Positions 690 to 57,454 of a stretch of DNA of 64,000 bases are shown here, in pieces. The notes beneath the pieces were generated by a model. That model was given only the letters and a program-made list of their open reading frames with translations. It did no database searches and was not told the origin of the DNA. A program made the translations under genes and the position numbers. How positions within the stretch are numbered: the stretch's first letter is position 1; the number at the start of each line of letters is the position of its first letter. This DNA is from Blastocystis sp. Blastoise (lineage: Eukaryota > Protista > Bigyra: Opalinata): the NCBI GenBank assembly GCA_039096225.1, contig JBBPEB010000002.1, positions 620,001 through 684,000 on the forward strand, in the 5' to 3' direction.

Positions 690-757
690 TTTATATGATT
701 TTAATCAACAAAACAAAAAATAATTAATGATAAGTTAAAGATAAATAAATGATTTTA

Positions 758-1423: not shown

Positions 1424-1513
1424 TTTTATTAAATAAATTAATTATGAAATTATAAACAAAACAATATTTATTAAATTGTATAAATTGATAAAAGAAAATA
1501 TTATATAATTAAA

Positions 1514-2737
1514 TTAATTGGTTGCACCATCTCTAACAAATTTAACAAATATAAAATGAGCATATAAAGTATAAGTACCACTAGTAATATTTGCACCATT
1601 ATATTCAGTTAATAAGGAGATATTAACTTCACAACCACTACGAGTATTGACATCAACAACACTTGAAATAGGGAATATATAAATAGGTTGTTCATACCAC
1701 TTTTCACCATTTAAAGGAGATTGAGGATGACTATTACATCTCCAAGTATTATAAAGCATAGCATTAGGAATAATTTGTGATGGATTCGTTGTTTTATATG
1801 TAGTAGGGAAATCCGTCTTTGGTAAGATATTTTGACCACCAATTTGGAATTGACACATCTTCAATAATTCAGTCTTAATAGGAATCATACTCTTCTCTTG
1901 AGTTGTAAAATATAACATACAGTAATCAGGTACGAAAACAACACTTCTATTGGATAAGAATTGTTGTGGAGTTGGTTTACCTGCTGTTGTGAATGTTTCT
2001 GAATAAACAGGTGTAGTAAATGCAGATATCTGACAATTATTAGGAATACATTTAATCAAAGCACGTGGATCATTACCAAAATTAATATCATAAATTTGTT
2101 GAAGATGAATATAAACACGATCAAAAGTTAATGCAGTGATTTTAGTCGTACCTGTAAATAGATTCTTTAAATAATTTGTAACGAATTGCATCTTCAAAGA
2201 TTTTACTTTAATAGCACAATCAAATGTACCAAGACCAGTAATAAGAGATAAAGGAATAATAACTTGAGCTTTTTCTTTCATTTCCATTCCAGCAATACTG
2301 CTTGAGGTTGTATTATATAAGCATTCTGTCATACTATACATAGATTTATCAATTTCATCTTTACTTAATTCTTTAATAGTAACAAATTTTCTTGCTTTAC
2401 TGGATTCAATAGAAGATTCAGAATAATTAATAAGAATATCTTGACCCGTAGGAGATACAAACGTAAGATCTGTAGTAATTTTATCAATAATACTATAGAT
2501 ATTAGAATGTTGTACAACAGAACTAGTTGTTGCTGCATTTGTTGTAATATTGAAATTCAGTTCTAAGAATGAATTACTGAAATCAATATAAGGGCTATCC
2601 ACTGAATTATGTAAGAATTCAAATGGATAAGGTTGATTTAATAAATCTTGACTTGTAGAAACTAGAATAGGAATTTGTACAGGTTTAATAGTTTGATTTG
2701 CCTTTGAAGGTAAGAATTGTCTTGGGAATCCTTCCAT
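1514..2737 (-). CDS. Major capsid protein paralog 1 (double jelly roll)
   Basis: 407 aa, beta-rich; N-terminal YIDFSNSFLELNFNI and IIPLSLI motifs typical of Polinton/PLV MCPs; gene context. Confidence 0.78.
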   Translation of the reverse strand: MEGFPRQFLPSKANQTIKPVQIPILVSTSQDLLNQPYPFEFLHNSVDSPYIDFSNSFLELNFNITTNAATTSSVVQHSNIYSIIDKITTDLTFVSPTGQDILINYSESSIESSKARKFVTIKELSKDEIDKSMYSMTECLYNTTSSSIAGMEMKEKAQVIIPLSLITGLGTFDCAIKVKSLKMQFVTNYLKNLFTGTTKITALTFDRVYIHLQQIYDINFGNDPRALIKCIPNNCQISAFTTPVYSETFTTAGKPTPQQFLSNRSVVFVPDYCMLYFTTQEKSMIPIKTELLKMCQFQIGGQNILPKTDFPTTYKTTNPSQIIPNAMLYNTWRCNSHPQSPLNGEKWYEQPIYIFPISSVVDVNTRSGCEVNISLLTEYNGANITSGTYTLYAHFIFVKFVRDGATN

Positions 2738-2912
2738 GTTAGTAATTATTGTTTATGTATTTTTTAACAAAATAAAAATAACATAATAATAATATTTTAT
2801 AATTATTTATTAATTTAAATTTTTTATAACAAAACAAATGATTGTATTATAGAATAGAATAGAATTAATTAAACAAGTTAACGTTAAGAATAGTAAGTAA
2901 GAAATATTAAAT

Positions 2913-4385
2913 TTAAATATCACGTACACTACGTACAGCAATCATATGTAAGGTATAAGGATGCTTCTCATTTAGTTCAGTATTAATATGTTTATAAATA
3001 CCAGCATGAGATGCTACACTATAAGAAGCACCAGTATCAGGTGTCCATATTTTAGTAGTTTCATTATATGTACATGTATATCCATCAGGAACAGTAGATG
3101 AATCAGCATGACCATACTCAATATCATGGACATCTAGATTACAATCAAAATTCATTTCTATACCACTATCTGATTGGATATTCATTAATGCTTTAGTTGG
3201 AATAATATAAATAGGATGTTTAATCCATTCATCATATTTAAGAATAGTTTCAGGATTTGAATTATCAGCCCATAAACAATATAGTTTTTTATTAGGACAA
3301 GATAAACTAGCAGTTTCTTCATTATTGAAGACATGACCTTTAGTAGTAAGATTATGATAATACATTTGAGTAGGGAATTCAGTTTGAGGGAACATTTGAA
3401 CATCACCAATCAAACAACTTTGATATTTAGGCCATACAGATGGACTAGCTACATTACTAATAGTTGTTGAACTATAACCATTTGTAAACCAGTATAATAT
3501 ATATTCAGGTATAAATGGTAAAGCTCTATTGATATTGAATTGATCACTAGTTATTCTTGTATTTTGATAATCGACTTGAATACATGCAGGTATAGTTTTA
3601 TATAATTCATTCGTTTGGAATTGAATATCTTTATAAGTCATTAAATTCATAGTAGCTGATTCCAATTCAAATGTCTTAAACCATTTTTCATCAGTTAGAT
3701 GTAACCATTGTGTTGATAATTTAGCACCACCATTCTTGAAATAAATACTCATATTATTATCAATTAAAGATTCAATTGTACTCGTTCTAAATAGCATATT
3801 GAAATGTTTAGTTAATATTAATGAATCTCCATCAACACCTAAACCACTAATGAGATATAAAGGAATAGCAATATGAATAGATTCATTTGGATGTGCACGT
3901 ATATAACGAATAGAATTCAATTCATAAGTATCTGCAGATAAATCTTCACCATACATAGATTTTTCTAAATCATTCTTACTGATATCTTTTAATAAAATCA
4001 TCTTACGACCACGTGAAGCATGTGTACAGTTTTCTTCATATTTCAAAGCACGATCAGATCCATCAGGTAATGTATAAGCCATTTCAACATCAGTGGAATC
4101 AATAATAGAATAAATATTTGCTTTTTGAACTAATTGATCCAAGAAATATTGACATAATTGATCATAAGTGAAACTAACAGAAGTACCTGTTTCATCTAAA
4201 TAAACAGAAACTGGTCCTTTTTTATCTGTAACAGTTGCTTTGACAGTAAGATCCAAATAGGATTGATTGAAATTGATATAAGTATTATCCACATTAGTCC
4301 AATGATATTGAAAGATATAAGGACTTGATAGAATATCAGTATCACTTTGAATAGGAATATTATCTTTAATTCTTAAGATTCTCAT
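2913..4385 (-). CDS. Major capsid protein paralog 2 (double jelly roll)
   Basis: 490 aa, colinear with 1514..2737: YINFNQSYLDL/YIDFSNSFLEL, NIYSIID in both, KSMY in both, IPLYLISGLG/IPLSLITGLG, FIPEY/FVPDY, PQTEFPT/PKTDFPT, PIYIIP/PIYIFP. Confidence 0.75.
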   Translation of the reverse strand: MRILRIKDNIPIQSDTDILSSPYIFQYHWTNVDNTYINFNQSYLDLTVKATVTDKKGPVSVYLDETGTSVSFTYDQLCQYFLDQLVQKANIYSIIDSTDVEMAYTLPDGSDRALKYEENCTHASRGRKMILLKDISKNDLEKSMYGEDLSADTYELNSIRYIRAHPNESIHIAIPLYLISGLGVDGDSLILTKHFNMLFRTSTIESLIDNNMSIYFKNGGAKLSTQWLHLTDEKWFKTFELESATMNLMTYKDIQFQTNELYKTIPACIQVDYQNTRITSDQFNINRALPFIPEYILYWFTNGYSSTTISNVASPSVWPKYQSCLIGDVQMFPQTEFPTQMYYHNLTTKGHVFNNEETASLSCPNKKLYCLWADNSNPETILKYDEWIKHPIYIIPTKALMNIQSDSGIEMNFDCNLDVHDIEYGHADSSTVPDGYTCTYNETTKIWTPDTGASYSVASHAGIYKHINTELNEKHPYTLHMIAVRSVRDI

Positions 4386-4478
4386 ATTTCTTTTTATTTT
4401 AAATAAATATTAATAAATAAATAAAATTAAATAATTTTTATAAATTAATATAAATTATTATTTTATAAATTAGAAAAT

Positions 4479-6914
4479 ATGGAGCTTGATGATGATAATT
4501 ATGAAGAACAGACTTCATTAGAAGAGAAGGATACTCGTATTAAAACACATGTAGTCCCTATTGATGTTCGTTGTATTGATAATCAATTCAATATACATTT
4601 ATCGAATTCTATTGATATCACTAAAAATATCATTTCTTATATTGATCTTAATTTAATTGGTAGTGAAAGTGTGCCTCTATTTGATACATTCACAAAAACA
4701 CAAATATTCAAATATATAAATACTCGTGTCAATGGTAATAGTTCCGTATATACAATCACTTTAGATCAGAAAAATTATTCAATTCCACAATTATTAGAAC
4801 TATGTCATTTTGATATATGTGATAGACCAGTAATAAAAGATTCTCCTGATATTGATTCTACTGTTAAAATTAAGAAAATTCCAACAATTACAATTAATAG
4901 AGATGATTGGTATTGTGAAATTACAATTTATAATAAAAGACGTGGTTTTTACTTTCCAAAAGGTACTTATACGGATATAGAGTTTTGGTGGATAGCTGTA
5001 TGTTGTGTATCAGCTAAATGGGGTGATAAATTTAATCGTTTAATGATGAAATATGATGATGATACTATAACCATATATCGACCTCAATTAACTTCTTATA
5101 ATGTTCCTGTTACATCAACAGGAATCTATGAATTGAATGAATTCTTTACTGATGGTGTGAGTGATCATTCAAGTTATATTGTTCCAACACAAGGTTCTAA
5201 TGGAATTATGAAATGTGTATTAGCTGATGAACATAAATTTTATTTCCAATGGTCAAGTAATAATATACTCAGTTTAGAAAAACAATTATTCACTGGCTTA
5301 TTTGAAGATTCAGAAACATTGACATATACTTCACTTCAAGAGGAAATTACATTAAATAGAATTAAAAGAACAGTCTTTGTGGAAGATGGATATAATACAA
5401 TGATTGTTCGACAATTGAGTGGTTATGATGGTGTTCATGAAACTACATTCACTGTTCCTCCTGGAAATTACACAGAAAACAAATTCTATGAATTATTAGA
5501 AAGTTCAATCAATAATACAATTTATACTGATTATTTAAATATATCCAAAGATGCTCAAACTATGGACAATAAGGATGGATATATAATATATTTATCTTGT
5601 AAAGGTACTGATTCTACGTCATTCACGTTTACAGCTACAGATATAGAGCACTCCTTATTTAAGTATCGTGGTGCTCTACATAATATACGTCCTGATCTGG
5701 TTTATGATGAACAAGGATGTTTTGCTTGGCATGTATCTTATGGTAAACAATTATTACCAGATACACCTGTTTATTTGAATACATTAGATTTAGATGGTAA
5801 TTATAAGTGTTATACTGATAGTTATCATATAGATTTCTCTCAAGCTCAAGAATTAGGTGAAATCCTAGGATATAATAAATTAGGTCATGATGAAATTATT
5901 AATTATGGTGTTCATAATATTGATAGTAGTCGTCCAAAAGGAATGTTAATAGCTCAATCGAATATAGTAGATAATAGTCAGAATTCTTTATATTCATTTA
6001 ATGTGAATAATTATAAAGGCAATAATGAATTTCATGATATTATGAATATTAATGTGTCTCCTTATTTGAATACAATACAAGATATTACAATACGATATAC
6101 TGATAAAAATAAACAATATGTGAATTTCAATGATAATTGTATTTTAAGAGGATTCTTAGAATTCTCAGATACAGTAGATACGATTCAACCAAGTGAAACC
6201 ATTAAGAAATTATGTTTGAATTGTTTAACAGCAGACACACAATTCTATGCTGAATATCCTACATTGAATATCCAAAATAAGATCTTGAAAGATATTATTA
6301 TTCAGAATGATACTGATACGATCCAAATAAATGCATCTAAATTATGTACTGGATATATAAATGGATCTTATTATCCTACATTTAGTTTTCCTTTATCTGA
6401 TAAATATGTTACTTATAGTAATATAAATTCTCCAATCACAATTGATCATAATATAGATTTAAGATTTGATGAATTATTCAAAGGAAATATAATTTGTAAT
6501 ATATGTGAACCTAATGGTAGTGATATACGTTTCAAAGCTTATGATGAAGTGTATTGTGATTTTAGTACGAGTAAGAATTTAATTTATGAATTGAAGAAAA
6601 CCAATGTCTATGGATATCAATATTTAACAAATATACAAATTATATCAGTGTATGGTCAATCCACTGATTACTTATATCCTATTTCATTAAGATGTTTTAC
6701 TAATGAATATGAGAATAATATTCATGTTATTGATACTACAAATCTACCTTATTACTATTCGAATGGTATTAAATATGAAGGTATATCAAATAAGATCAAT
6801 AAGAATGTCTATTATTGTAATCGTAAATTATTAAAGTTATTACCTCATGATAATATGTTCTTTATTACTTGTGATTATCCTTGTGTTGTTTTATTAACTA
6901 TCTCTTATATATAA
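4479..6914 (+). CDS. Large penton-like / vertex-fibre protein with repeated insertion modules
   Basis: 811 aa with repeated turn motifs (LDQKNYS, FPKGTYT, STGIYEL, VPPGNYT), LGEILGY and a penton-type segment (QSNIV...IQDITIRYTDKNKQYVNFN) resembling 758..1423. Confidence 0.6.
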   Translation: MELDDDNYEEQTSLEEKDTRIKTHVVPIDVRCIDNQFNIHLSNSIDITKNIISYIDLNLIGSESVPLFDTFTKTQIFKYINTRVNGNSSVYTITLDQKNYSIPQLLELCHFDICDRPVIKDSPDIDSTVKIKKIPTITINRDDWYCEITIYNKRRGFYFPKGTYTDIEFWWIAVCCVSAKWGDKFNRLMMKYDDDTITIYRPQLTSYNVPVTSTGIYELNEFFTDGVSDHSSYIVPTQGSNGIMKCVLADEHKFYFQWSSNNILSLEKQLFTGLFEDSETLTYTSLQEEITLNRIKRTVFVEDGYNTMIVRQLSGYDGVHETTFTVPPGNYTENKFYELLESSINNTIYTDYLNISKDAQTMDNKDGYIIYLSCKGTDSTSFTFTATDIEHSLFKYRGALHNIRPDLVYDEQGCFAWHVSYGKQLLPDTPVYLNTLDLDGNYKCYTDSYHIDFSQAQELGEILGYNKLGHDEIINYGVHNIDSSRPKGMLIAQSNIVDNSQNSLYSFNVNNYKGNNEFHDIMNINVSPYLNTIQDITIRYTDKNKQYVNFNDNCILRGFLEFSDTVDTIQPSETIKKLCLNCLTADTQFYAEYPTLNIQNKILKDIIIQNDTDTIQINASKLCTGYINGSYYPTFSFPLSDKYVTYSNINSPITIDHNIDLRFDELFKGNIICNICEPNGSDIRFKAYDEVYCDFSTSKNLIYELKKTNVYGYQYLTNIQIISVYGQSTDYLYPISLRCFTNEYENNIHVIDTTNLPYYYSNGIKYEGISNKINKNVYYCNRKLLKLLPHDNMFFITCDYPCVVLLTISYI

Positions 6915-6983
6915 ATATTTTAATTCATTTCATTTAAATTAAAAAATGTTTTGTTATATTATTCATTTAAAAATTATTAAAAA

Positions 6984-7406
6984 ATGGAGCCTAAATCTGT
7001 ATCTGAATCCTTACATTCTTTATCAAGTACAAGTTCAACAAGTTCAGATAGTTCAACAACAACCACATTATCCGAAGAAGAAATAGAAAAGAAAAATACT
7101 TTATTAGAATTTATTATAAAAGCTATAAAATGTTTATTTGAGAAATCAACTGAATTCTTTCAATTAATTGTTAAAAATATAGATATTCATTGTAATTGTT
7201 GTAATCCACAAACAAAGAAAGTCTATTATAAGACAATGAAAATACAACAAACTATTATAGAAGAAGAAGTCAAACATATATCTGAAGTCTTGAATGAATT
7301 AGAAGAAATTGATTCGAATCAAAATGAATCAATACAAGAATTAGCTGTTCAATTAATGAAATTAAATATAAGTGTTGATTCTATTGTTCAATCTCTTCAT
7401 TTATAA
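6984..7406 (+). CDS. Hypothetical viral protein (Ser/Thr-rich N-terminus, predicted coiled coil)
   Basis: 140 aa ORF with AAAATG start context and downstream TTGTTTTGTT motif like neighbouring genes. Confidence 0.7.
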   Translation: MEPKSVSESLHSLSSTSSTSSDSSTTTTLSEEEIEKKNTLLEFIIKAIKCLFEKSTEFFQLIVKNIDIHCNCCNPQTKKVYYKTMKIQQTIIEEEVKHISEVLNELEEIDSNQNESIQELAVQLMKLNISVDSIVQSLHL

Positions 7407-7473
7407 TTCTATGAAATGTTATAAAATATTAATAATAAATTTGTTTTGTTTATAAATAATTTAATTTTTAATA

Positions 7474-9318
7474 ATGCAATCAACAGGTTATTCAGATAAA
7501 GATTGTGAAGAATTCTTTACAAATTGTATAGATCAATTATTACATTGGAAGAAAATACAATTATCAACAAGTATAAATTGGAAGAAATGGATAAAGACAA
7601 TATGTAAGAAATTTCGTAATGAAGAACGAATTCAAATAGATGATATGGAAGAACCATTCTTTTGTGTAGAAGTGTTAACAGATCCATTTCAATTTCAAAA
7701 TGTTATGCAACATACACAAACAGAAGCTCCTGGACAACAAGGTGGATTATCCAATACTACTGTAGCTAATTATATGCAAATGATTACTTATATAATGAAG
7801 AATATATCTATTTGTACAGATGATGAAGATATCATTAATTATAAAGCATTTACTCCACAAAATATAAAGAAATGGGAACATTTATGGGGTTCTTTACAAA
7901 TTGATGCTACTTATTCAAGACATTATGAAATCACTCAGAAAATTATTAATTGTGAAGCTGATTGGGGAGAAATCATTAATATCACCAAAAAGAATTATTT
8001 AGAAAATCCTAATGATTTATATTATGTGAATAGTTATTTATTAGTTTTAACTTATGATACATTATGTGCTCGTAATGATTATAATGATTGTGTAATCTAT
8101 ACTCGTGGTCAACAAATTCCTTTATCGTTAAGAAGAACAACCAATTATATTGATTTAAATACTTTGACTATTCATGTGAATGATACAAAGAATCGATTTG
8201 AAATTGGTAAGAATGAATATCCTACTTATCAATATTTATCAGAAGAATATTTGAATGTCTTAGCTAGATCCTTACGTTTATTTCCAAGACATTATTTATT
8301 TGTTACTGAGAATGGTGGTAAAGTACGTGATTTGAAATTTGGTGATGAATATATAAAACCTCATTTAGGATGGATTTATAAAACACAACAGAATAATTCT
8401 TTAATTAATGGTTGTGATATTATAAGACATTTATTTGCTCAATATTATTATAGATTATCAAGAGAAGCACAATTCCAACATAATGATTCAGAACACGAAT
8501 CTAAAGGTGTAGAACTCTTTGAAAACTCTATTATGAAGATGTTACATAGTCAATCAACACATATGGAAAATTATATATCTCCTTATTTATCTTCTCATTC
8601 AACTAAATTGCAAGATTTAGATAATAAAACAAGAACATTTCATATTGATATGAATAATATTACTTATACAAGAGAAATTAATCAATTGAATAAATTATTA
8701 TTTTTATGTAAACGATTTAATGATCGTATAGAACAATATGATGAAGATTATGAAGATGTATTTGGTAAAGAGAATTTCAATATGAAATCAGAATCCATAT
8801 TAGGTAGTCTAGAACAATATTCATCAGATAATGATACTATAATGATTACATTAAGATATTATAAAGATCTATTAAAGCATAAGTATCCAGATAAAAACGA
8901 TTTAGAAAATGAATTACCTGTAGGATGTTCATTAGAATCTGAAGAAGTTCCAGAGAATTCTAGAGATCGTTATAATCGTTTTATACGTAATAAACAATTA
9001 TTACCTGATCATTTACATAATAATACAACAGATTCAGAATTAACGAATACTCAAGCATCTCTTATGCAACAAAATACTCAAGATGAAAACTCTACACCTA
9101 TAGTTATGAATAATTCAGATACTTATGCATTACGTAGTCTTTCTACTATGCCTCCTTTAGAACCTATTCATCGTGGTCATGGTTTATTGAAAAACATAAA
9201 GGTAATGCATTCTTTAAAGTCAAAGTCCCTAAAAAACATTTTCATGGAATTCAATTTAAATTTTATTAATTTTTTAAACAAAACAACTTTTTATAATAAA
9301 AAAAATATTATTATTTAA
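7474..9318 (+). CDS. Tyrosine recombinase 1 (PLV/virophage type) with long extensions
   Basis: Catalytic series ARNDY (R), NYI, DTKN (K), YLF, DIIRH (R), MLHS (H), ENY (Y); same motif order as 18048..18983. Confidence 0.72.
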   Translation: MQSTGYSDKDCEEFFTNCIDQLLHWKKIQLSTSINWKKWIKTICKKFRNEERIQIDDMEEPFFCVEVLTDPFQFQNVMQHTQTEAPGQQGGLSNTTVANYMQMITYIMKNISICTDDEDIINYKAFTPQNIKKWEHLWGSLQIDATYSRHYEITQKIINCEADWGEIINITKKNYLENPNDLYYVNSYLLVLTYDTLCARNDYNDCVIYTRGQQIPLSLRRTTNYIDLNTLTIHVNDTKNRFEIGKNEYPTYQYLSEEYLNVLARSLRLFPRHYLFVTENGGKVRDLKFGDEYIKPHLGWIYKTQQNNSLINGCDIIRHLFAQYYYRLSREAQFQHNDSEHESKGVELFENSIMKMLHSQSTHMENYISPYLSSHSTKLQDLDNKTRTFHIDMNNITYTREINQLNKLLFLCKRFNDRIEQYDEDYEDVFGKENFNMKSESILGSLEQYSSDNDTIMITLRYYKDLLKHKYPDKNDLENELPVGCSLESEEVPENSRDRYNRFIRNKQLLPDHLHNNTTDSELTNTQASLMQQNTQDENSTPIVMNNSDTYALRSLSTMPPLEPIHRGHGLLKNIKVMHSLKSKSLKNIFMEFNLNFINFLNKTTFYNKKNIII

Positions 9319-12317
9319 TTTGGTATAGCATATAAAGTATTATCTATTAAAATTCGTTTTGTTGATGACGTATTATGATATTGATCTTCACTATAAACAA
9401 TTTCTTCTTTTTTAGATAAACAATTGGATAAACAGAATAAATCTGTATCCACACATTCATTATAAGTATTATCAATCATTAAACCACAAATACCAATAGC
9501 ATTCCCCCCCTTATAGAAATTTGAAGTATGTTTTCTATGAATATTCACAATATCTATAGAATTAAATGTATCTTTACTACTTAAACAACCAAATAAAGCA
9601 TTTGTAAATTTATCTAAATCCTTCTTAATCGTAAATTGATTATTATTATTCACTTTCTTATAACTATTAAAAATATCTTCAATAGTAACTACATTCAAAT
9701 AATAAGGATCTATAGTAATATGGTTATCAACAAAAGATTTCAAATCATATCCTTCTGTACTACGATCAAAGAATCGTTTCTTACATTCACTTATATGATA
9801 TTCATTATCTAATTCATGCATATCTAATTGCATACTAGAATAGAAATAATTACTTACTAGATAACTAAAGATAATTGAACGATTCTGATAGAATTTATCG
9901 GATAGAGTATAATCCATTTCATAATGATTTGGTTTCAATCTCTTTTCTACTGTCTGTTTACGTTTAGGTAAATTATGATCTACATAATCTTCATATAAAT
10001 TAGCATTACCAGGAGGGAAATAACGACAACATGATGGTAAGAAACAGACTCTTCTTTCAATAGGACCAGCATTCACAGCAGTAGGTTGGATATTACTTGT
10101 CATAAATAAAGTACCCGTGAAATGAACTTTTGTAAATATATTACTGAATAATTTACGGGCACTAGCACCTTCTTTCTTTTCTGCTATTTCTTTAAAGACT
10201 TTAGAAGAGAATGGATTAAATGTTTTCTTTCTACCAGTAACATCTTCTTCTATTAATTCATTCATATAATACATTGTTTTATTAGACATATCTACAATCT
10301 TAGGAGCTATAGATGTTTCTTCTAAATTATCTGGATTTACTATAATACATTGATTACTACCTACAATACGAGATATTAAATCAGTTGTTATTGTTTTACC
10401 ATTACTACCTGTACTACCATATAATATATAAGAAACTGTTTTCTGAGTATTGACATAGAAAGCAGTGGTTAAGATACGTAACATAATACTTTCATATTTC
10501 TTATCGAATTCACAATATCTTGCAATATGTTGTTCAAATAATTGGATAATATCTTTCTGTTCATTATTAATATTCCAACTTACATTAAATTCAGTATCAA
10601 TTAATAAATCTTCAAACACCATATCTTCTTTATGATATGGTTGGATATAATATTGTCTAGGATCTTCTTCTGTAGATTCTTTTGGATATAAATAACCAAG
10701 TTGTGTATAGATAACACGTTCTTTATGAACCATATAAGTATCTAAATATTCTTTATAAGATTTACCATAAGTCTTCAAATAACGATTCAACCATTCTTTA
10801 TAATGATATTCATTAGTAACAGAAGCAGACATTATTTTATCAACAATTTTTTGATGCTGTTCATTCTCTTTGGAATATAATCTTGATAATTTGAATTTCT
10901 CTACAATCGATTTCATAAATGTAGTTATTTTGGTTTCAAAGAAATTAATATCATAATTATTCTTACAACGTCTTAAGATATTATATTCATCAAATGTATA
11001 TAAGATAAAATTATCTTTATCTAATATAATAGATACAATTTCATTAAATTCTAATAATTGAAATAACATAACTAATGTTTGTGAATCTACAAGATTAAAG
11101 GATTGAATACATTCTAAAATAGACATAAATATGAAATCATTATCATCATCTTTATTAAATAATTTATTATCCATTAATATCTTCAAAATATAATTATTCG
11201 ATAAATGAGTAGGATCAACTTGTATATGATTCCATGTAGATTCAATTACATCATCACTTCGATCATGACCATAACGTAATGAATAATTTTTAAATAATTC
11301 TAATCCTCTTGTTGTATTACAAATCTGTTTTGCTGCACAACATAATTTATACCAAGTATTATGGGATTCAAAATAATTCATATCTTCAATAGAACCAATC
11401 AATAATAAATATCGTTCTAATAAAGCTTCTTTAGATGCTGTAGTATCCAATATAGTATCTGTAGAAATCAACATAGGAATATCTTTAATATCTTGTATAG
11501 AACATAATATAGTACGTGAACAATTATTTAATCTTGCATAATAACGTTTATAACGTGAATATTGTTTTAATTTATAAAAAGTAATAGGATTAATAATATC
11601 ACTTATAATATCATCTTCATTCTTATAATTCAATAATGTTTTGAAATAATAATGTTCATCGATTTCATCATCTATTTTCTTCCATGTTTTATTGGTATAT
11701 TCTTCATATAATTTATAAGTAGATGGAGAATTATCTTTACTACAACCAAGAAACATACAACCATTATTCTTTCTTGGTTTACCAATAACATTATAATCAA
11801 TGAATTCTTTTATATCTAAATTATTCATTTTACATAAATCAACCAATTTTGTATTCAGAATCATACTATTATATAAGAAAAATAAATAATCACCATTTAC
11901 AAACCAATTTGTATATATATGAATTCCCCATGAATAATGTATTTCATTATGAACTGTCTTCTTATTCACTTCTTTCTTTGTATACAGAAGCGAAATAAAT
12001 TCTTGATTATAATAATGAATACAATGATTACACATTTCTTCTATAAATTCATGAATAAAAGAATCTGTTAGAAAAGAAAAATCATTTGATATTTGGTGAT
12101 AATCTAAATCAAACCATAATCTTCTATAATTAGTTGATGTATTACAAGGAGTACAATCAATATAATGTAATAATTCTTTTGGATTTTGATAATTAGTAAA
12201 TAGACTTTTATAAAATGGTAATGGATTTGGTATAATAATTTCACTATGATTATCTTTTGAATTATCATGATTAAAGGAACCAAAAGTATAAACAAAATGA
12301 ATTTGTGAATTTTCCAT
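9315..12317 (-). CDS. AEP primase - PriCT - superfamily 3 (D5-like) helicase fusion
   Basis: LWFDLD (DxD), WGIHIY, FIDYNV primase motifs; HNTWYKLCCAAK...FKNYS PriCT-2-like; GSTGSNGKT Walker A, YMNE Walker B, FMTSN motif C, IERR Arg finger. Confidence 0.9.
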   Translation of the reverse strand: MENSQIHFVYTFGSFNHDNSKDNHSEIIIPNPLPFYKSLFTNYQNPKELLHYIDCTPCNTSTNYRRLWFDLDYHQISNDFSFLTDSFIHEFIEEMCNHCIHYYNQEFISLLYTKKEVNKKTVHNEIHYSWGIHIYTNWFVNGDYLFFLYNSMILNTKLVDLCKMNNLDIKEFIDYNVIGKPRKNNGCMFLGCSKDNSPSTYKLYEEYTNKTWKKIDDEIDEHYYFKTLLNYKNEDDIISDIINPITFYKLKQYSRYKRYYARLNNCSRTILCSIQDIKDIPMLISTDTILDTTASKEALLERYLLLIGSIEDMNYFESHNTWYKLCCAAKQICNTTRGLELFKNYSLRYGHDRSDDVIESTWNHIQVDPTHLSNNYILKILMDNKLFNKDDDNDFIFMSILECIQSFNLVDSQTLVMLFQLLEFNEIVSIILDKDNFILYTFDEYNILRRCKNNYDINFFETKITTFMKSIVEKFKLSRLYSKENEQHQKIVDKIMSASVTNEYHYKEWLNRYLKTYGKSYKEYLDTYMVHKERVIYTQLGYLYPKESTEEDPRQYYIQPYHKEDMVFEDLLIDTEFNVSWNINNEQKDIIQLFEQHIARYCEFDKKYESIMLRILTTAFYVNTQKTVSYILYGSTGSNGKTITTDLISRIVGSNQCIIVNPDNLEETSIAPKIVDMSNKTMYYMNELIEEDVTGRKKTFNPFSSKVFKEIAEKKEGASARKLFSNIFTKVHFTGTLFMTSNIQPTAVNAGPIERRVCFLPSCCRYFPPGNANLYEDYVDHNLPKRKQTVEKRLKPNHYEMDYTLSDKFYQNRSIIFSYLVSNYFYSSMQLDMHELDNEYHISECKKRFFDRSTEGYDLKSFVDNHITIDPYYLNVVTIEDIFNSYKKVNNNNQFTIKKDLDKFTNALFGCLSSKDTFNSIDIVNIHRKHTSNFYKGGNAIGICGLMIDNTYNECVDTDLFCLSNCLSKKEEIVYSEDQYHNTSSTKRILIDNTLYAIPN

Positions 12318-12403
12318 GATTATTTGACTTATAAATAATGAAAATAATTATAATACAACATTTAAAACAAATAATATATTAAAGATTCTAGAAGTCAGTT
12401 TTG

Positions 12404-12451
12404 GAAGCTTCTAGAACATTCTAGAACATTCAAGAACATTCTAGAACATTC
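12404..12451. promoter_or_regulatory. Heat-shock-element-like array (10 alternating nGAAn units) upstream of primase-helicase
   Basis: GAAgcTTCtaGAAcaTTCtaGAAcaTTCaaGAAcaTTCtaGAAcaTTC. Confidence 0.7.
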
Positions 12452-12485
12452 TATAATAGTAAATATTACTTTATATTTTTAAATG

Positions 12486-12533
12486 TTCTAGAACCTTCTA
12501 GAACCTTCTAGAACCTTCTAGAACCTTCTAGAA
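12486..12533. promoter_or_regulatory. Second heat-shock-element-like array (10 units) upstream of primase-helicase
   Basis: TTCtaGAAcc repeated five times, last spacer ca. Confidence 0.7.
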
Positions 12534-12643
12534 CATCCTTTTTATACTTTAGTGTTTTAAATGTATATATAATAAACAAAACAATTTTCAATGATTTTTT
12601 ACAAGTTTATAAGTAAAACTAGAAAAATAAACAAGAAAAATAA

Positions 12644-13267
12644 TTAAATTTCAATTGGTTCTTGACTATTAATATATGTACATGAATGAGGCCATCCATT
12701 CTTATCATATAAAATACCATCCCAGAAATACATTTGTTTTGAAGGATCTCTTTTAATCTTGTTAATACTCTTAGCATGAACAACTTCATAAGAATAAACT
12801 TTACCTTTTTCATCATAAAGAAATCCATCTTCCATATGGAATTTCATAATATCAAAATCATCATCTTTAGAATTCGAATGTTCTTTAGAATCTTCAGAAC
12901 ATAAAATAGTAGTTCTATCACTTTCTAAAAGATCTTCAGTATTGATAATATCTTGAATATCTTGTTCTTCATTAAGTTGTTGAGTATAAATATCAGCAGC
13001 GAATTCTTCATAATCTTCAAGACCTTTAATAACCGCGTTTATACGTTTTAAAGCTGATCTATAGTTTTCGACTTCGAAAGAAGCAAGACGTTCTTTAGAT
13101 TTTGCAATACCCAATAGATTCTTTTCTCTATTCAATTGAGACTGATGTAAATCAATATCACGAAGAACATTCTTATGAACTTCAACAGCCTTCTTAGAAT
13201 TCTTAAGAAGTTCCATACGAACAGTTTGAAGACATTTACGGGAATCAGCAGAAAGATTAAATTGCAT
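12644..13267 (-). CDS. Hypothetical viral protein with N-terminal coiled coil
   Basis: ORF track starts at TTG 13312; first ATG is 13267 (MQFNLSAD). Charged helical-looking N-half. Confidence 0.7.
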   Translation of the reverse strand: MQFNLSADSRKCLQTVRMELLKNSKKAVEVHKNVLRDIDLHQSQLNREKNLLGIAKSKERLASFEVENYRSALKRINAVIKGLEDYEEFAADIYTQQLNEEQDIQDIINTEDLLESDRTTILCSEDSKEHSNSKDDDFDIMKFHMEDGFLYDEKGKVYSYEVVHAKSINKIKRDPSKQMYFWDGILYDKNGWPHSCTYINSQEPIEI

Positions 13268-13378
13268 TATAATCGCGAATATCGTTACAGAGAGAAAATT
13301 TGTATTTATCAAAATGAAATAAATAATACATTTAAATGGAATATTAAATATTCTAGGAGACAGTGTAGAATCTCTATG

Positions 13379-13396
13379 GAATGTTCTAGAAGGTTC
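13379..13396. promoter_or_regulatory. HSE-like array (4 units) in a divergent promoter that also has three inverted CCAAT boxes
   Basis: GAAtgTTCtaGAAggTTC; ATTGG near 13402, 13475 and 13545. Confidence 0.55.
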
Positions 13397-13665
13397 ATTT
13401 GATTGGCTAATTTTGTCGACTTAGCATTTTTTATTTGTGTTTCAATGACGAGTATAGTTGGCATCTGTAATCTGATTGGATAAAAAAATTAGTAAAACAC
13501 AATTAGACGATGACGACGATGTGTCATACGAAATAAGTTATTTTATTGGCTTATTTTCCAGCTGGAAGCAATAGGCTTTTGTTAGCAACTGAAATGAAGA
13601 ACTGTACACTAAAAATAGTATATTTAATATATTGTATAAAAATACTTTTGAAGGTTTAAATAATC

Positions 13666-14193
13666 ATGGAAATTTCTGATAGTCTTTCTGCCAGTTTATC
13701 CCCTTTCGGTCAAGCCATGATATCCCCCTTGTTGAATCCATTTGAAAATAGTGTTTCTGCAAATCCTATGGCTTTACCCAATGATAATGATTTCTGTTTT
13801 AATTCGCGTGACGAAATCATGTTTGAAGATCCACCTCAAGATATTCATCCAATCAATGATGTTTACGTATCTAAAAATCCAGATAGATATCATTCGGTTA
13901 ACAATCAACCAATACAATTTCAAGATCAAGTAAATACAAATCCTAATAAGCAAGCATTATTATTTACAAATGAGGAGTTAACAAATATATCCAGTCAATT
14001 CGAATCTTTATTTCAAACTATTGAAACAGCTGATAATATATTAAATGGTATTTATTGTACTGTTGATCATTTAAAAACAAAGATTGAAAGTCAGAAACAA
14101 GATTTGAAACAGATTCATGATGATTCTAAAGAAATTGTTTCATTATTATCCGAATATTCTATTCCTTCTATGTCTGAAATATTTGATCATTAA
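13666..14193 (+). CDS. Hypothetical viral protein (acidic/Pro-rich N-terminus, C-terminal coiled coil)
   Basis: 175 aa ORF; heptad-like C-terminal region; TTGTTTTGTT about 25 nt after the stop. Confidence 0.7.
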   Translation: MEISDSLSASLSPFGQAMISPLLNPFENSVSANPMALPNDNDFCFNSRDEIMFEDPPQDIHPINDVYVSKNPDRYHSVNNQPIQFQDQVNTNPNKQALLFTNEELTNISSQFESLFQTIETADNILNGIYCTVDHLKTKIESQKQDLKQIHDDSKEIVSLLSEYSIPSMSEIFDH

Positions 14194-14284
14194 TTATTTT
14201 TATTTAATTAATTATTTTGTTTTGTTTATTTTTTTTTTAATTAATTACACAAAGTTTAAATGGAGAATAGAATAGTTTCAAATA

Positions 14285-14391
14285 GAATTCTTGAATGGTC
14301 TAATGGATCTATTAAAGAAATATGTAACCACAGTATCATGGTTCGATTCCGTTAAAATGTTTCCATTAGATTATTCAAGTGTTCTTTTTTT
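14285..14391 (+). ncRNA. Candidate Pol III small RNA, VA-RNA/vault-RNA-like architecture
   Basis: A-box TGGTCTAATGG 14296-14306, B-box GGTTCGATTCC 14340-14350, T7 at 14385-14391; 14290-14307 pairs with 14362-14379 (18 bp, two G-U). Confidence 0.65.
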
Positions 14392-14437
14392 CTAGAACCT
14401 TCTCGAACCTTCTAGAACCTTCTCGAACATTCTGGAA
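14390..14437. promoter_or_regulatory. HSE-like array (10 units) upstream of the SSB-like gene
   Basis: TTCtaGAAccTTCtcGAAccTTCtaGAAccTTCtcGAAcaTTCtgGAA. Confidence 0.7.
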
Positions 14438-14514
14438 AATTGATTCATTTGAAAAGAATATCGTAATATATTAGTATTAAAATACTTATATTTTTACTAA
14501 ATACTTAACTAAAA

Positions 14515-15108
14515 ATGTCTTCAACTGAATTTAAGAAACCTACTATTCTTGATACTTCTAACTTTAATTTACAATGGGATGACACCAAAGAAAATGCTGT
14601 TCTTTTAAATAATAATCATCGTGTATGTATTTCTACTGATGCTACACCATGTTTATTTGGTTATATTGTTACACGTGATAAATGGACTTTATTAACAATT
14701 GAAGATGATAATCAAGTATTCTTAACTGCTTATAAAGAACTTTATCGTAAATTATGTGAATTATGTCCTGATGGTGATATTGTTAATTTTGTACGTATGG
14801 ATAATGGTAAATATAAGATTACAATTAAAGTACCTATTAATGCATCGAAGAATGTTACTATTGATATCACTGATAAAAGAGATAAGAAGATTAATATCGG
14901 TAAAGATCCTAAGTTAACTTACGAAGAAATACGTGAAAAGTATATTCCACCAAATACGTTATGTAAAGTATTATTTACAATACATGGTATTCATCGTTAT
15001 AATAACAAGTATTATATTGGTTTATATGCTCGTTCTATTAAAGTCATCGATAAATCTACGAAGAATACTAATAGTAATGATACTATTATTGATTTAACTA
15101 ATTTATAA
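14515..15108 (+). CDS. Probable OB-fold single-stranded DNA-binding protein (viral, DUF2738/gp2.5-like)
   Basis: C-terminal pattern IPPNTLCKVLFTIHGIHRYNNKYYIGLYARSIKVI resembles viral SSB OB-fold strands; shares the upstream array with the primase-helicase. Confidence 0.55.
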   Translation: MSSTEFKKPTILDTSNFNLQWDDTKENAVLLNNNHRVCISTDATPCLFGYIVTRDKWTLLTIEDDNQVFLTAYKELYRKLCELCPDGDIVNFVRMDNGKYKITIKVPINASKNVTIDITDKRDKKINIGKDPKLTYEEIREKYIPPNTLCKVLFTIHGIHRYNNKYYIGLYARSIKVIDKSTKNTNSNDTIIDLTNL

Positions 15109-15183
15109 ATTTTTAATGTTAAATTTATTTTTTATTAATATATTTGTTTTGTTTATAAATAATTTTATAATTGAAATAAAAAA

Positions 15184-16911
15184 ATGCAAAGTTGTATATT
15201 AGGAATGCCAAGTCCTGGTACTTTTGGTATGAATTTAATTTCAACTGGAAAAGAATATAGGCGATATAATACACAACCATTACATAAAATGGATCAATAT
15301 AATCCAATATTTCATGAAATAGGTCCAAATTCATCTATGCCTGTGTCTACTTTAGAAAGTAAAGAAATACATGATGGTAAAGAAGATGATTATGTAGATC
15401 GTTCTAAAACATTTGGTAAAGATGCTGTTCCACAAGGAAATGGTGCATTAATTCGTGCTAGAGCAGCAGGTAAAGGAATAATGAAAGCAGCTGGTCCAGA
15501 AGAAGATAAAATAGATGGTGAAGATCGTCAATATAAAGTATTAAATCCATGTAAACCAAGACGTAAATCTGGTAGAGGAATTATTCCAAATAAATCAGAA
15601 ATCAATAAATTAGAGAATAATCAAGGTTCTGGTATTGGTGATGCAATTAAAAATAAAGTAAAAGATATGTATCAACGAAATGTATTAGATATAAGAGATG
15701 CTATTGTAGATAAAAAAGCTAATAGAAAAGCTCGTGATGCATTAGCTATTTTAGCTCAATATGTTGGTGACGGTCATCATGATCTTGATGATGAATTCAA
15801 AAGATTCTATGAACATAAAATTAAACGTGGTGGAAAGATTCCTATATCAGTTGCTTCAGCAATTATGAATGCAATTAAAAATAAGAAAATGATTAAGAAT
15901 CCAAAATTAAGAAGAATGTTAAGACCTTCAATTATACCAAAATATATAGATTTAGATTCAGCTCAAAGTGGTGATGGTATATTAAGAGTAAAAAGAGGTG
16001 GTGGATTCTGGAGTGGAGTTATGAACTATGCACCAGCTCTATTAGGTGTAGTTGATAAAGGTATGGATTCTTTTGCTAAAGGTAGAAAAGCTTATTATGA
16101 TACACATTTGGCACAACAATCAAGTGAATTAAATGATATGGAATTTGAAATGGAAAAATTAAAACGTCAACAAGCATTAAATGAAATGAAAAAGCAAATA
16201 GGTAATGGTATAGTAATGGGAACAATTAATGATGGTTACGATACAGTTGAACGACAATCAGAATTATTAGATCAAGAAGTGCAACCATTAAGAGATTTGC
16301 ACAGTATGAAACAACAACTTAGAAAGAATCTTCCTGTTCGTCAACCACCTCCTCCAGCAGCACCCATTCAACCACAACCAGAAATTGAACCTGAATTGAA
16401 TGTTGATACATTTGATATACCTCAAAATGATACACCAAGACATCCACAAACTCAACAACCTCCTCAACCTTATAAACCCATGTCTCGTGATGAACAAAGT
16501 TATTATTATAAGATTTATGGTTTCCCTCAAAATGATAAAGAGAAAGTCGATAGAAAATGGAAAGAAGATGAAAGGGATAAACGAATAGCTGCAAGAAGAG
16601 CTAAACGTAGAGGTTATGGTGGTCGAGTTAAATTAAGTAAAGCAGAATTCTTAGAACGAATGAGAAGAGGAAAAGAAGCTAAAAAGAAAAGAGGTGGTGA
16701 TTTGAATCCATTAGTATCATTTTATACAGATTTTATAATACCTGCAGGAGTGGCACGAAAAAAACGTAAAATACAAGAGGCTGATTTAAAACAATTACAA
16801 ATTATAAAACAGAAAAGAGATAATAATGAAACATTAAATACAGGTGACGAATTGTTCTGGAAAAAAAAGAAGTATATGTTATCAAAAAACTCAGGGGAGG
16901 GGATCTGGTAA
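15184..16911 (+). CDS. Basic core protein precursor with repeated adenain-type G-x-G / GG cleavage motifs
   Basis: 575 aa, Lys/Arg-rich; QGNGAL, AGKGIM, SGRGII, QGSGIG, RGGKI, SGDGIL, RGGGFW, IGNGIV, YGGRV, RGGDL, SGEGIW; adjacent to the protease. Confidence 0.7.
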   Translation: MQSCILGMPSPGTFGMNLISTGKEYRRYNTQPLHKMDQYNPIFHEIGPNSSMPVSTLESKEIHDGKEDDYVDRSKTFGKDAVPQGNGALIRARAAGKGIMKAAGPEEDKIDGEDRQYKVLNPCKPRRKSGRGIIPNKSEINKLENNQGSGIGDAIKNKVKDMYQRNVLDIRDAIVDKKANRKARDALAILAQYVGDGHHDLDDEFKRFYEHKIKRGGKIPISVASAIMNAIKNKKMIKNPKLRRMLRPSIIPKYIDLDSAQSGDGILRVKRGGGFWSGVMNYAPALLGVVDKGMDSFAKGRKAYYDTHLAQQSSELNDMEFEMEKLKRQQALNEMKKQIGNGIVMGTINDGYDTVERQSELLDQEVQPLRDLHSMKQQLRKNLPVRQPPPPAAPIQPQPEIEPELNVDTFDIPQNDTPRHPQTQQPPQPYKPMSRDEQSYYYKIYGFPQNDKEKVDRKWKEDERDKRIAARRAKRRGYGGRVKLSKAEFLERMRRGKEAKKKRGGDLNPLVSFYTDFIIPAGVARKKRKIQEADLKQLQIIKQKRDNNETLNTGDELFWKKKKYMLSKNSGEGIW

Positions 16912-17003
16912 AGAGTAAAGATGAAAAACTTATTCAAAATTCAATGAATTGCGATAATCCTATTATATCTGATAAAACTCGTCATGTTACTCCTAGATCC
17001 CCT
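16884..17003 (+). other. Candidate -1 programmed ribosomal frameshift signal linking core precursor to protease
   Basis: In-frame A_AAA_AAC (16884-16890), 7-nt spacer, AGGGGATCTGG (16898-16908) pairing with CTAGATCCCCT (16993-17003); the -1 frame is the protease frame and is open from 16848. Confidence 0.7.
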
Positions 17004-17477
17004 GATAATTTTAAACAAACTCTATCTCAATATTGTAATATACCCAATTCTTTAATATCTCAATTATATAATTATGCTTATTTAAATAAACCTACTTCTT
17101 CTGTTGCTTGTGATCGTGCTGAAAATGTTATGAAACAATTAAATAAAACGAATTCTCAATCTTATAATTATTATAATAGTTATGATGATTTTGAACAAAA
17201 TATAGATCAAGATCAAACTAAATTTAATATGATCTTTCATGAAAGTCCTAGTGATCCTTATAATGGTCATTTTGAAGCTGTTATTTATAATGGTAATAAA
17301 AACATAGAACACTATTCATCATTAGGAAATGAACCTACTTTTTCAAAATCATTTATTCAAAATCATAATATTCAATATAATCCTATTCAACACCAAAAAA
17401 CTACAAGTAATGCAAATGGTTGCTTTTATTATTCTTTACTTTATTTACTTTCTAATGGAAATCTTATGCCTTGTTAA
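16944..17477 (+). CDS. Adenain/Ulp1-like (clan CE) maturation cysteine protease; frame open from 16848
   Basis: NGHFEAV (His), EHYSSLG (position of the usual FDSxG motif), IQHQ (oxyanion Gln), NGCFYYSLLYL (Cys). Confidence 0.78.
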   Translation: MNCDNPIISDKTRHVTPRSPDNFKQTLSQYCNIPNSLISQLYNYAYLNKPTSSVACDRAENVMKQLNKTNSQSYNYYNSYDDFEQNIDQDQTKFNMIFHESPSDPYNGHFEAVIYNGNKNIEHYSSLGNEPTFSKSFIQNHNIQYNPIQHQKTTSNANGCFYYSLLYLLSNGNLMPC

Positions 17478-17481
17478 AACA

Positions 17482-17504
17482 TTCTAGAACATTCTAGAAC
17501 ATTC
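17482..17504. promoter_or_regulatory. HSE-like array (5 units) upstream of ORF 17600
   Basis: TTCtaGAAcaTTCtaGAAcaTTC. Confidence 0.55.
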
Positions 17505-17599
17505 ATTTTGAACTGGCTCTATTTGTAGAATCTTTAATTTATTATATTAGTGTTTTATATAATTAATTTGTTTTGTTTAATCATTGGTTAATTTAAATA

Positions 17600-17974
17600 A
17601 TGAACAAGAAATATCTTAGTTATTCTTATTTTTGTCGTGTGATGAAGAATCTAAAAGAAGAAGGAATTAAATCCAAAAAGAATGAAATAGCAAATCTATT
17701 AGAACAATTTTTAAATAATAATAACAACAAGAATCTTAGTGATTTGCAATTGAGTTACTGTAGAAATATGTTACTTTATATAGATGATCCTGTGATTCAT
17801 CAACGTCTTGAAATGCTATTGGATAAACAATATATGAAGAATGAGAATCAATATCAAGAGGATAAGAATCTTATTCAACCCAATAATATGTTTATGCCAA
17901 CTATGAAAAGTAATCAACAACAAAATCAATACCAAAATAATAATAATACTCTATCTTTCTTACCTTTTAATTAA
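17600..17974 (+). CDS. Hypothetical viral protein
   Basis: 124 aa ORF with Asn/Gln-rich tail, preceded by an HSE-like array. Confidence 0.6.
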   Translation: MNKKYLSYSYFCRVMKNLKEEGIKSKKNEIANLLEQFLNNNNNKNLSDLQLSYCRNMLLYIDDPVIHQRLEMLLDKQYMKNENQYQEDKNLIQPNNMFMPTMKSNQQQNQYQNNNNTLSFLPFN

Positions 17975-18047
17975 TTTTTATATCCTTTTATTACTAGTTG
18001 TTTAGTTATATTCAAATTTAAAGCAAAACAAGCATGAAAACACAAAA

Positions 18048-18983
18048 TTATTCAATTAATTTTTTAAATAAATTATTATTTTCTAAAGATACATAAGAAT
18101 TAATATGTGTATAATCATTATGACATAAAGCAGAAGCAGAATTTTCTATATCTTGGAATGTATTGGTTGTAGTTGTAGCATATAATTTTCTTAATGCATT
18201 AATGGTTAATTTTGGATGGATTTGTTTTAAATGCTTATTCACAAACCAATCAAATGCTTTAGTAGTAAATCCAGTTCGTACAGAAGATTCAAATATAAAT
18301 TTACGATTTGGATTTCTTTTTAAGAGTAATTCTAGATCTTCAATCAATTCTTTTGGTGCATCTAATTGAATTGTAGAGTATTTACCAGCAGTTTTATAAT
18401 CATTTAATAGAATAGAACCAGTATGTTTCTCTTTATCATAAACAATATAATTCTTATGAATAGCTGGATCAATAGTATCTTCTGGTGATAGAATGAATAA
18501 TTGAGCATAATCAGCACGAGCAGGAGGAATATAGGAGTAAAAATCTAATATTAATCGTAATGGATTATAATTTTCTAATTTATCGTGATATTCATGTAAA
18601 TATGGAGTCGTAATACCATCTTTAATAAGATCTTGAATCAAAGTACGTTTCTTATTATCCAGATATTTTTCATACATTGAATTGATAATCACATAAAATT
18701 CACACCATTTATTCAAAATACCTTCTTTATTTAATGAAGAAACATTACGTATAATAAATAATATCAATTCACATAACGATTTCATGGGACTAATTTTGAT
18801 TTTACGTTCATTTACCATATAATCCATGAATGAATAAGGATTCTTTAAGAATTCTGAGAACTTTTTAAATGGTAATGGGAAAATATATAAATTGAAATAA
18901 TTGGTTAAACGTTTTTTCCAAATATCAGAATAATTTGAATTTTGTATAACCAAAAGATACTTGTCATAATTTGTATTTTTCAT
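18048..18983 (-). CDS. Tyrosine recombinase 2 (PLV/virophage type)
   Basis: PPARADY (R), NYIV, NDYKTAGKY (K), FIF, INALRK (R), ALCHN (H), INSY (Y). First ATG at 18983; the track uses TTG 18995. Confidence 0.85.
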   Translation of the reverse strand: MKNTNYDKYLLVIQNSNYSDIWKKRLTNYFNLYIFPLPFKKFSEFLKNPYSFMDYMVNERKIKISPMKSLCELILFIIRNVSSLNKEGILNKWCEFYVIINSMYEKYLDNKKRTLIQDLIKDGITTPYLHEYHDKLENYNPLRLILDFYSYIPPARADYAQLFILSPEDTIDPAIHKNYIVYDKEKHTGSILLNDYKTAGKYSTIQLDAPKELIEDLELLLKRNPNRKFIFESSVRTGFTTKAFDWFVNKHLKQIHPKLTINALRKLYATTTTNTFQDIENSASALCHNDYTHINSYVSLENNNLFKKLIE

Positions 18984-19071
18984 TGATTTTCTCAAGTAGA
19001 ATCTCTAAAACTTCTATTTTCAAAAGAATAATATATAAGAAAATCAAAATAAAATATCTAAAATTCTCGTG

Positions 19072-19119
19072 TTCTCGAATGTTCTAGAAGTTTCTAGAAT
19101 GTTCTAGAATGTTCTCGAA
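19072..19119. promoter_or_regulatory. HSE-like array (10 units) upstream of tyrosine recombinase 2
   Basis: TTCtcGAAtgTTCtaGAAgtTTCtaGAAtgTTCtaGAAtgTTCtcGAA. Confidence 0.7.
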
Positions 19120-19175
19120 AATTTATATTTTTCCATATCAGTCGCTCATGTTTCAAAAAGTCTCTCGTTATAATC

Positions 19176-57300: not shown

Positions 57301-57454
57301 TAGTCACGGTCAATTATAGGTTGCTTTAAGTAGAGTACGTTCTTTTCATGGTATAAAAATGTTTATAAAGAATGATAATATTAATCAAGGTCAATTAATC
57401 AGAAATAGTAATGAATGGTATACTAAAAATTGTGTATTTAATGGAGTATCATAA
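51377..57454 (+). pseudogene. Helitron Rep/helicase (RepHel) with two nonsense mutations; intron ~52512-52583, first exon unresolved
   Basis: Zn finger CIHC...CCNNGKV; Rep motifs PDLFITMTCNP, EYQKRGMPHAH (HUH), KYIFKY; Pif1 motifs GPGGTGKT, WDEAPM, GDFRQ, CNGTRL, AMTINKSQGQT, HGQL*VALSR; stops at 55268 and 57317. Confidence 0.95.

Follow-up and report, generated by a model that had tools for sequence, protein, structure and literature searches.

A polinton-like virus integrated in the DNA of Blastocystis sp. Blastoise appears to make its putative maturation protease as an extension of a likely core precursor, and the two are most probably joined by a -1 ribosomal frameshift at the slippery heptamer A_AAA_AAC. 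Expression of the protease as a core fusion is supported by relatives in which both proteins are fused in frame, by a conserved segment ahead of the first protease ATG, by a family that lacks the corresponding methionine, and by a signal geometry like that of MMTV. The slip itself we infer as the best explanation of this arrangement. A preliminary description of the same DNA had proposed a Gag-Pro-like mechanism; a core-protease fusion, most likely reached by -1 frameshifting, is the form in which that proposal stands, and the fused relatives and the conserved segment uphold it. All positions refer to the window, the entire stretch of 64,000 nucleotides that was analysed, and the features of the junction lie on its forward strand.

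The first ~19130 bases of the window (1..19130) are an endogenous polinton-like virus, the left end of which lies beyond the window and the right end of which is approximate. It forms an A/T-rich, compact cluster of 15 long ORFs with a third-position G+C of 13%, and its gene set comprises a packaging-ATPase-like ORF, two paralogous major capsid genes, a primase-helicase, the core, the protease and recombinase-like ORFs. The P-loop ORF at 3-689 matches a packaging family (E 2.7e-10), and the replicase ORF at 9315-12317 matches a primase family (E 2.4e-9). Two further ORFs, 7474-9318 and 18048-18983, resemble recombinases on visual inspection and matched no Pfam or PHROG family. The capsid paralogues are 28% identical to each other, and their double jelly-roll assignment comes from a low-confidence model of one of them (pLDDT 50). 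This model has a MELD virus protein as its top match (E 1.7e-13), followed mostly by proteins named major capsid proteins, and aligns with the mavirus MCP over 296 residues (Z 9.5, rmsd 11.5). The G+C content of the window as a whole is low, in line with the tortoise-clade Blastocystis genomes, for which an excerpt of PMC10690189 gives 21-23%. Together with the species name carried by near-identical core proteins, this points to a probable tortoise-clade host.

The core ORF (15184..16911) encodes a basic protein of 575 amino acids with several G-G and G-x-G motifs, and its composition, these motifs and its position make a role as internal virion precursor likely. Searches of Pfam, PHROGs and PDB sequences recognised neither this protein nor the protease. 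The database holds 21 near-identical core proteins, 20 named Blastocystis sp. Blastoise plus the window's own, and these 21 intact copies are recorded under locus tags of one genome. At its 3' end the ORF reads AAA AAC TCA GGG GAG GGG ATC TGG TAA, which confirms the location of the heptamer at 16884..16890, in the X_XXY_YYZ register of the core frame, as reported in the preliminary description. The protease occupies the -1 frame, which is indeed stop-free over 16848..17477 (209 open codons). A ribosome shifting at the heptamer would enter it at 16890, from where 195 codons lead to the protease stop.

Downstream of the heptamer, a 7-nt spacer (16891..16897) is followed by a predicted stimulatory stem, at a distance that agrees with the ~6-9 nt 3' of the heptamer at which such structures are expected according to an excerpt of PMC3835772. 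The pairing of 16898-16908 with 16993-17003 (11 bp, one G-U) was already part of the preliminary description; folding recovers it within a larger structure of 22 bp, in which 16913-16918 also pairs with 16987-16992 and 16920-16924 with 16979-16983 (pair probabilities 0.67-1.0). The 5' arm thus spans 16898..16924, with the core stop codon (16909-16911) in a bulge, and the 3' arm (16979..17003) lies within the protease coding sequence, in the VTPRSP region. The predicted stimulator is a long multibranched stem-loop. The only pseudoknot options that emerged from a simple scan were weak and A/U-rich, and a search of Rfam returned nothing beyond a chance match to a miRNA hairpin.

This structure stands out within the element. 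Folded over the interval chosen beforehand in the preliminary description, it has a z of -2.79 and none of 200 shuffles is as stable; for a 110-nt window trimmed to the fold, with ends picked after the fold was seen, z is -4.3 (0/500 shuffles). When 495 coding windows of 110 nt were slid across the element, none was as stable as this trimmed window, and on that grid the one at 16894 shares first place. Among 73 stems of at least 11 bp, the junction stem has the most G-C pairs, which bears out the impression that so G/C-rich a match is exceptional in AT-rich DNA. The heptamer is likewise unusual: 20 in-register heptamers occur in 5647 codon positions, and only A_AAA_AAC at 16884 opens a -1 frame of more than 12 codons. 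The chance of finding any in-register heptamer within the 20-codon overlap is ~0.07, and ~0.007 for one of the A_AAA_AAC type. A second slippery candidate, the A8 run at 16861-16868, was dropped because a K-to-E change breaks it in 9 of the 21 core copies.

Codon usage at the junction points in the same direction. The six core codons starting with the AAC of the heptamer form the rarest six-codon window of 5379, and in the protease frame the junction bases give a reading that none of the 5379 matches for rarity. An internal control is provided by the R-G-G-D-L motif at 16690..16704, about 200 nt before the junction, the upstream repeat noted in the preliminary description, which is written in common, A/T-ending codons. 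Rarity in both frames at the junction next to ordinary codons in the upstream motif argues for a constraint beyond one protein sequence, be it overlapping frames, pairing, or both. These observations bear on the least probable of the explanations considered, namely that the frame break is an assembly error, with a homopolymer base lost from a truly continuous gene, or that RNA polymerase slips on an A run. The junction does contain A6, A8 and two G4 runs, some relatives are fused in frame, and no independent contig covers the junction. A single coding frame, however, would have no need of rare codons in both frames, and the stop is identical in 21/21 copies; the two together argue against a simple assembly slip. 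In addition, the otherwise intact ORFs hold 14 A/T runs of at least 6 and 10 G/C runs of at least 4 (junction runs included in both counts), and the A8 run is itself interrupted in the nine copies with the K-to-E change.

The copies of the core ORF are informative in another respect. The final 14 core residues are identical in all 21 genomic copies, among them the S-K-N encoded at the heptamer, whereas the two allelic core types differ at 19 of the 56 residues before this shared tail (one pair compared). The invariant tail may be no more than a recombination boundary among near-identical copies.

Core and protease are likely carried by one mRNA. The motif TTGTTTTGTT, which by its position we take as a probable mark of 3' ends, occurs with 0-1 mismatch 17-91 nt past the stop in 13 of 14 evaluable ORFs. 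The sole exception is the core, after which the best match has 3 mismatches, in agreement with the earlier remark that no such motif separates the two ORFs. One copy at 15144..15153, belonging to the gene before the core, sets the upstream bound of the likely core-protease transcript; the first one after the core start lies past the protease ORF, at 17568..17577. The first protease-frame ATG (16944..16946) has T at -3, a poor context in an element in which 13 of 15 start codons have A there, and it is this context together with the missing motif that makes a single transcript likely. Among the sequencing runs, no RNA run is listed with the element; one run holds a small share of it, and the contigs from that run touch parts of the element, none of them over 16208-16943.

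Relatives indicate where translation has to begin. The stretch from the core stop to the first ATG (16911..16943) comprises eleven codons in the protease frame and is conserved as protein, with 5-7 of 11 residues identical in 6/6 relatives, a level similar to the 47-61% identity over the aligned protein. In P0044/P0062 a Leu replaces the methionine of ATG 16944, and the next Met of that family comes 32 or 60 residues on. Translation must consequently enter ahead of this ATG. It is thus very unlikely that the protease is an ordinary gene of 177 amino acids that starts at 16944, whether on a transcript of its own or through leaky access, with the overlap features as coincidence or relics. Such a start would be in keeping with the many database calls that begin there, and with the in-frame ATG kept in P0001, P0002 and even the fused P0043, but it would leave the conserved segment and the codon bias of the junction unexplained. 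Moreover, the ATG lies within the predicted structure, and the locus offers neither an A/T-rich intergenic space nor a 3' motif past the core, nor the A at -3 that is usual in this element.

Entry upstream of the ATG could also be achieved if ribosomes terminate at the core TAA and then start again at an overlapping near-cognate CUG, giving free protease. The candidate, a protease-frame CTG at 16905..16907, lies 1 nt ahead of the core stop and corresponds in the alignment to the start Met (ATG) of P0001/P0002. A restart there would account for the conserved segment as well as for the single transcript. We nevertheless regard this explanation as quite unlikely for the window, since the CUG is buried within the strongest predicted helix, and since a restart would account neither for the heptamer nor for the in-frame fusions, nor for the GG that is conserved immediately ahead of the CUG in the protease frame. 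The corresponding Leu codon of P0044/P0062 also appears to end in A, judging from two model joins, and so would not be a near-cognate start. P0001/P0002 are a different matter: their ATG and the changed residues over the 3' arm suggest that this family may use another route, and the stem is not visibly kept in it.

The most direct support for a core-protease fusion comes from proteins that are already fused. A search for longer homologues found four clusters, all with core-like sequence ahead of the protease. In the P0043 family core and protease form one in-frame ORF of 617 amino acids; the join is present in at least 11 of the 30 cluster members (11 of the 15 listed), 7 of them distinct full-length proteins. 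The cluster is drawn from ENA records, which we treat as unspliced ORF calls on account of their source. The two parts meet at K-G-K-G, the counterpart in the alignment of the L-R-G-G of the window, and the Met equivalent to 16944 is kept despite the fusion. Three further fused gene models, P0046/64/65, which may contain introns, are without Met at the protease start. In the near-identical copies P0044/45/61/62, V-T-P-R-S-P is unchanged over the 3' arm of the stem, and the residues of the 5' arm would allow the same pairing via G-U, as worked out by hand from the protein. A protease tree of 10 rows has one well-supported inner branch out of seven and does not give the order of fused and split states.

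Gene models of the sister family P0044/45/61/62 also bear on splicing, that is, on a short intron that joins the core and protease frames in some transcripts and yields the same fusion. There are 49 stop-free GT-AG pairs that would join the two frames, 11 of them no longer than 130 nt; examples are 16872-16894 (23 nt) and 16844-16872 (29 nt), and the 23-nt candidate ends in CAG and would leave a GG site with a basic residue like the others of the core. Four models of the sister family do link core and protease through introns, and in human-subtype Blastocystis introns are 30 nt long, as given in an excerpt of PMC10690189. The same excerpt, however, states that introns in the tortoise clade exceed 30 nt, and an intron at this place is absent from 21/21 models of the near-identical core family. 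The joins of the sister family are inconsistent as well: its four near-identical copies are joined in three ways, and the next gene is merged too, which looks like a gene finder bridging a break. Splicing would, furthermore, leave the in-register heptamer and the stem at 7 nt unexplained, and we consider it unlikely.

Frameshifting at A_AAA_AAC may be one of several solutions in these viruses. A profile-free search of 1.84 billion representatives for distant cores gave five matches, three of them new. The three new ones, divergent stand-alone cores with 34-60% mutual identity, all end in Gly-Phe, near the position of the P0043 join. These endings would fit a second slippery type, G_GGU_UUY before the stop, and we read them as a hint of recoding because there is little point in having a motif of the cleavage type one residue ahead of a stop unless translation can continue. 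Dipeptides compatible with a heptamer make up ~8% of all and occur at 2 of the 14 ORF ends of the window, and the Gly-Phe endings may go back to one inherited event. A tentative generalization, to which we give slightly less than an even chance, is that Blastocystis polinton-like viruses have repeatedly rewired a Gag-Pro-style switch, using a polyprotein, a -1 frameshift at A_AAA_AAC or G_GGU_UUY, and perhaps an AUG stop-restart. Searches for homologous DNA with the protease, its alignment, P0043 and the capsid protein gave nothing usable in viral contigs, nor did metagenome contigs and phage records; genome contigs yielded a single weak match, 58 residues long and from a bacterial MAG, which was left unused.

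The model of the protease (pLDDT 72) predicts a CE-clan fold of the Ulp1/adenain/pS273R-like type. Its best 29 VIA matches (Z 5.4-9.9) are almost all Ulp1/SENP-type, YopJ-type or viral maturation proteases, among them OtDUB at Z 9.9. Separately, the model matches the protease of a MELD virus (E 6.7e-5). H141, Q183 and C192 are invariant in 8/8 aligned proteases. A position that we take to be acidic and catalytic in related enzymes is Ser here (S157/S158), and with this replacement proteolytic activity is only presumed.

The predicted release site lies directly at the point of entry, where the protease frame reads L-R-G-G followed by D-L (16890-16907). The preliminary description had read K-L-R-G-G in this frame; L-R-G-G holds, but the K lies upstream of the shift point. 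It had also assigned the site to the adenain consensus, (M/I/L)xGG with x after the cut. A Gly-Gly site is present, yet it appears to fit the Gly-Gly-X rule of African swine fever virus (ASFV) better than the strict consensus. The core contains five G-G sites, and one K/R-R-G-G is common to all eight aligned cores; its other GG sites have K/R or Y, never M/I/L, two residues ahead of GG.

Taken as a mechanism, most ribosomes would produce the core precursor of 575 amino acids. A minority would pause at the predicted 22-bp stem and slip back one base at A_AAA_AAC, giving a core-protease fusion of ~770 amino acids (764 counted). With a low rate of slippage, the core part would bring the protease into capsids as they assemble, in a fixed proportion. 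There the protease would free itself by cutting after L-R-G-G, and once released it could process the remaining Gly-Gly sites of the core precursor.

Frameshifts from structural proteins to proteases are a hallmark of retroviruses. MMTV gag-pro joins its maturation protease, in that case an aspartic protease, to a structural precursor. MMTV is an RNA retrovirus with a compact pseudoknot, whereas the present system would combine a dsDNA double-jelly-roll virus with a CE-clan cysteine protease and a predicted long multibranched stem-loop. The heptamer AAAAAAC and the 7-nt spacer are nevertheless the same as those given for MMTV in an excerpt of PMC3835772, and the likeness extends to BLV, HTLV and IAP. 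Closer in virus type is a case in adintoviruses. In section 16 of the preprint by Buck et al., one sentence predicts slippery fusions of Hexon and Adenain ('Hexain'); sites at the end of Penton are predicted as well (PMC11071296). There, too, a slippery site would fuse a virion protein to an adenain-type protease in a polinton-like virus, but it is a KnotInFrame prediction for animal viruses, and the protease is joined to the major capsid protein. In the window it would be joined to a likely core precursor, and the site is backed by fused relatives and codon constraint.

The protease itself has its counterparts in viruses that express it differently. ASFV pS273R shares the CE-clan fold (Z 8.2, rmsd 3.7, 129 residues aligned to the protease model) and, as an excerpt of PMC10308890 describes, cuts the core polyproteins pp220 and pp62 after Gly-Gly. 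In the same excerpt it is the product of a separate gene and involves no frameshift or fusion, in contrast to the likely core fusion of the window. Adenovirus adenain has the same fold (4wx4, Z 7.6, rmsd 3.5, 118 aligned) and likewise matures precursor virion proteins. An excerpt of PMC8537868 presents it as a free protein, translated from an mRNA that is late and spliced, with DNA and the pVIc peptide as activators, whereas the protease discussed here is likely released from a fusion.

The preliminary description knew of no account of such a switch in polinton-like viruses or Polintons. As to a core-protease frameshift this agrees with the literature searched, in which we found none described for polintons, polinton-like viruses or virophages (the supplements of PMC11071296 may hold annotated core-adenain cases); as to slippery fusions in general it has to be qualified, given the Hexon-Adenain predictions for adintoviruses. 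Programmed frameshifting goes unmentioned in the main text of two 2026 surveys of polinton-like viruses (10.64898/2026.06.19.733378, 10.64898/2026.10.13.758929), where the term 'frameshift' does not occur. In excerpts of Starrett et al. (PMC8502044) and Bellas et al. (PMC10120064), 'frameshift' refers only to degraded genes or errors; the former describe Blastocystis MELD viruses, and the excerpt mentions no frameshifts in them.

If the proposed frameshift is real, it has consequences for annotation and for our picture of these viruses. At such loci gene finders go wrong, either adding introns that do not exist or cutting the protease short, and this is a warning for automated gene calls. For a stramenopile host, the locus provides a recoding signal that can be put to the test. 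In a group of viruses whose internal proteins lack annotation, it would identify a likely core precursor and a substrate, and the 21 intact core copies imply that the integrated elements are still built for making virions. The junction would be a first well-supported programmed frameshift that sets the dose of a virion protease in a eukaryotic double-jelly-roll DNA virus, and it would mean that a polinton-like virus has converged on recoding as a way to dose and deliver its maturation protease.

Judged from sequence, the active site of the protease family, predicted CE-clan cysteine proteases, is unusual. At the usual position of the acidic catalytic residue in related enzymes, the family has an invariant Y-S-S-L-G motif, whose S157-S158 correspond to 17316-17321 of the window, and around the nucleophile the order is G-C instead of C-G. 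The relatives P0001 and P0002 begin with Met-Lys, and their start Met aligns with the window CTG at 16905-16907. If the core frame of these two, known from their proteins alone, is offset as in the window, a TGA stop would share bases with the protease start (an AUGA stop-start overlap).

The near-identical core-protein copies of Blastocystis sp. Blastoise (P0022-P0042) are mosaics of two allelic modules: variation in the middle region is independent of that in the last domain, a pattern that suggests that the endogenous copies have recombined with one another. The polinton-like element also carries two paralogous major capsid genes on the minus strand (1514-2737 and 2913-4385), which share 28% identity over 418 columns; for the shorter one, a double jelly-roll is predicted. 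Two recombinase-like ORFs inside the element (7474-9318, plus strand; 18048-18983, minus strand) were recognized by eye only. Outside it lie a split integrase-like pair with weak Pfam Phage_integrase matches (28205-29346, minus strand) and Helitron Rep and PIF1 helicase domains (52664-57319, plus strand), encoded by two abutting ORFs with a single stop between them.

Arrays of a 10-nt TTCTAGAAC(A/C)-type repeat occupy intergenic positions in both orientations (12399-12543, 14390-14435, 17480-17503 and 19070-19119) and are possibly promoter or origin elements. An 18-bp intergenic hairpin (14290-14345, right end approximate) lies between ORFs 13666-14193 and 14515-15108.

Downstream of viral ORFs, a TTGTTTTGTT motif recurs at 707, 1455, 2828, 7441, 9277, 12575, 14217, 15144 and 17568, and resembles the downstream gene element known from Blastocystis of the human subtypes. 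At host genes of the tortoise clade, the Blastocystis lineage to which this host probably belongs, that element is reported to show no enrichment (PMC10690189). With the TTGTTTTGTT motif, the virus may have retained a 3'-end signal that is absent from its host.
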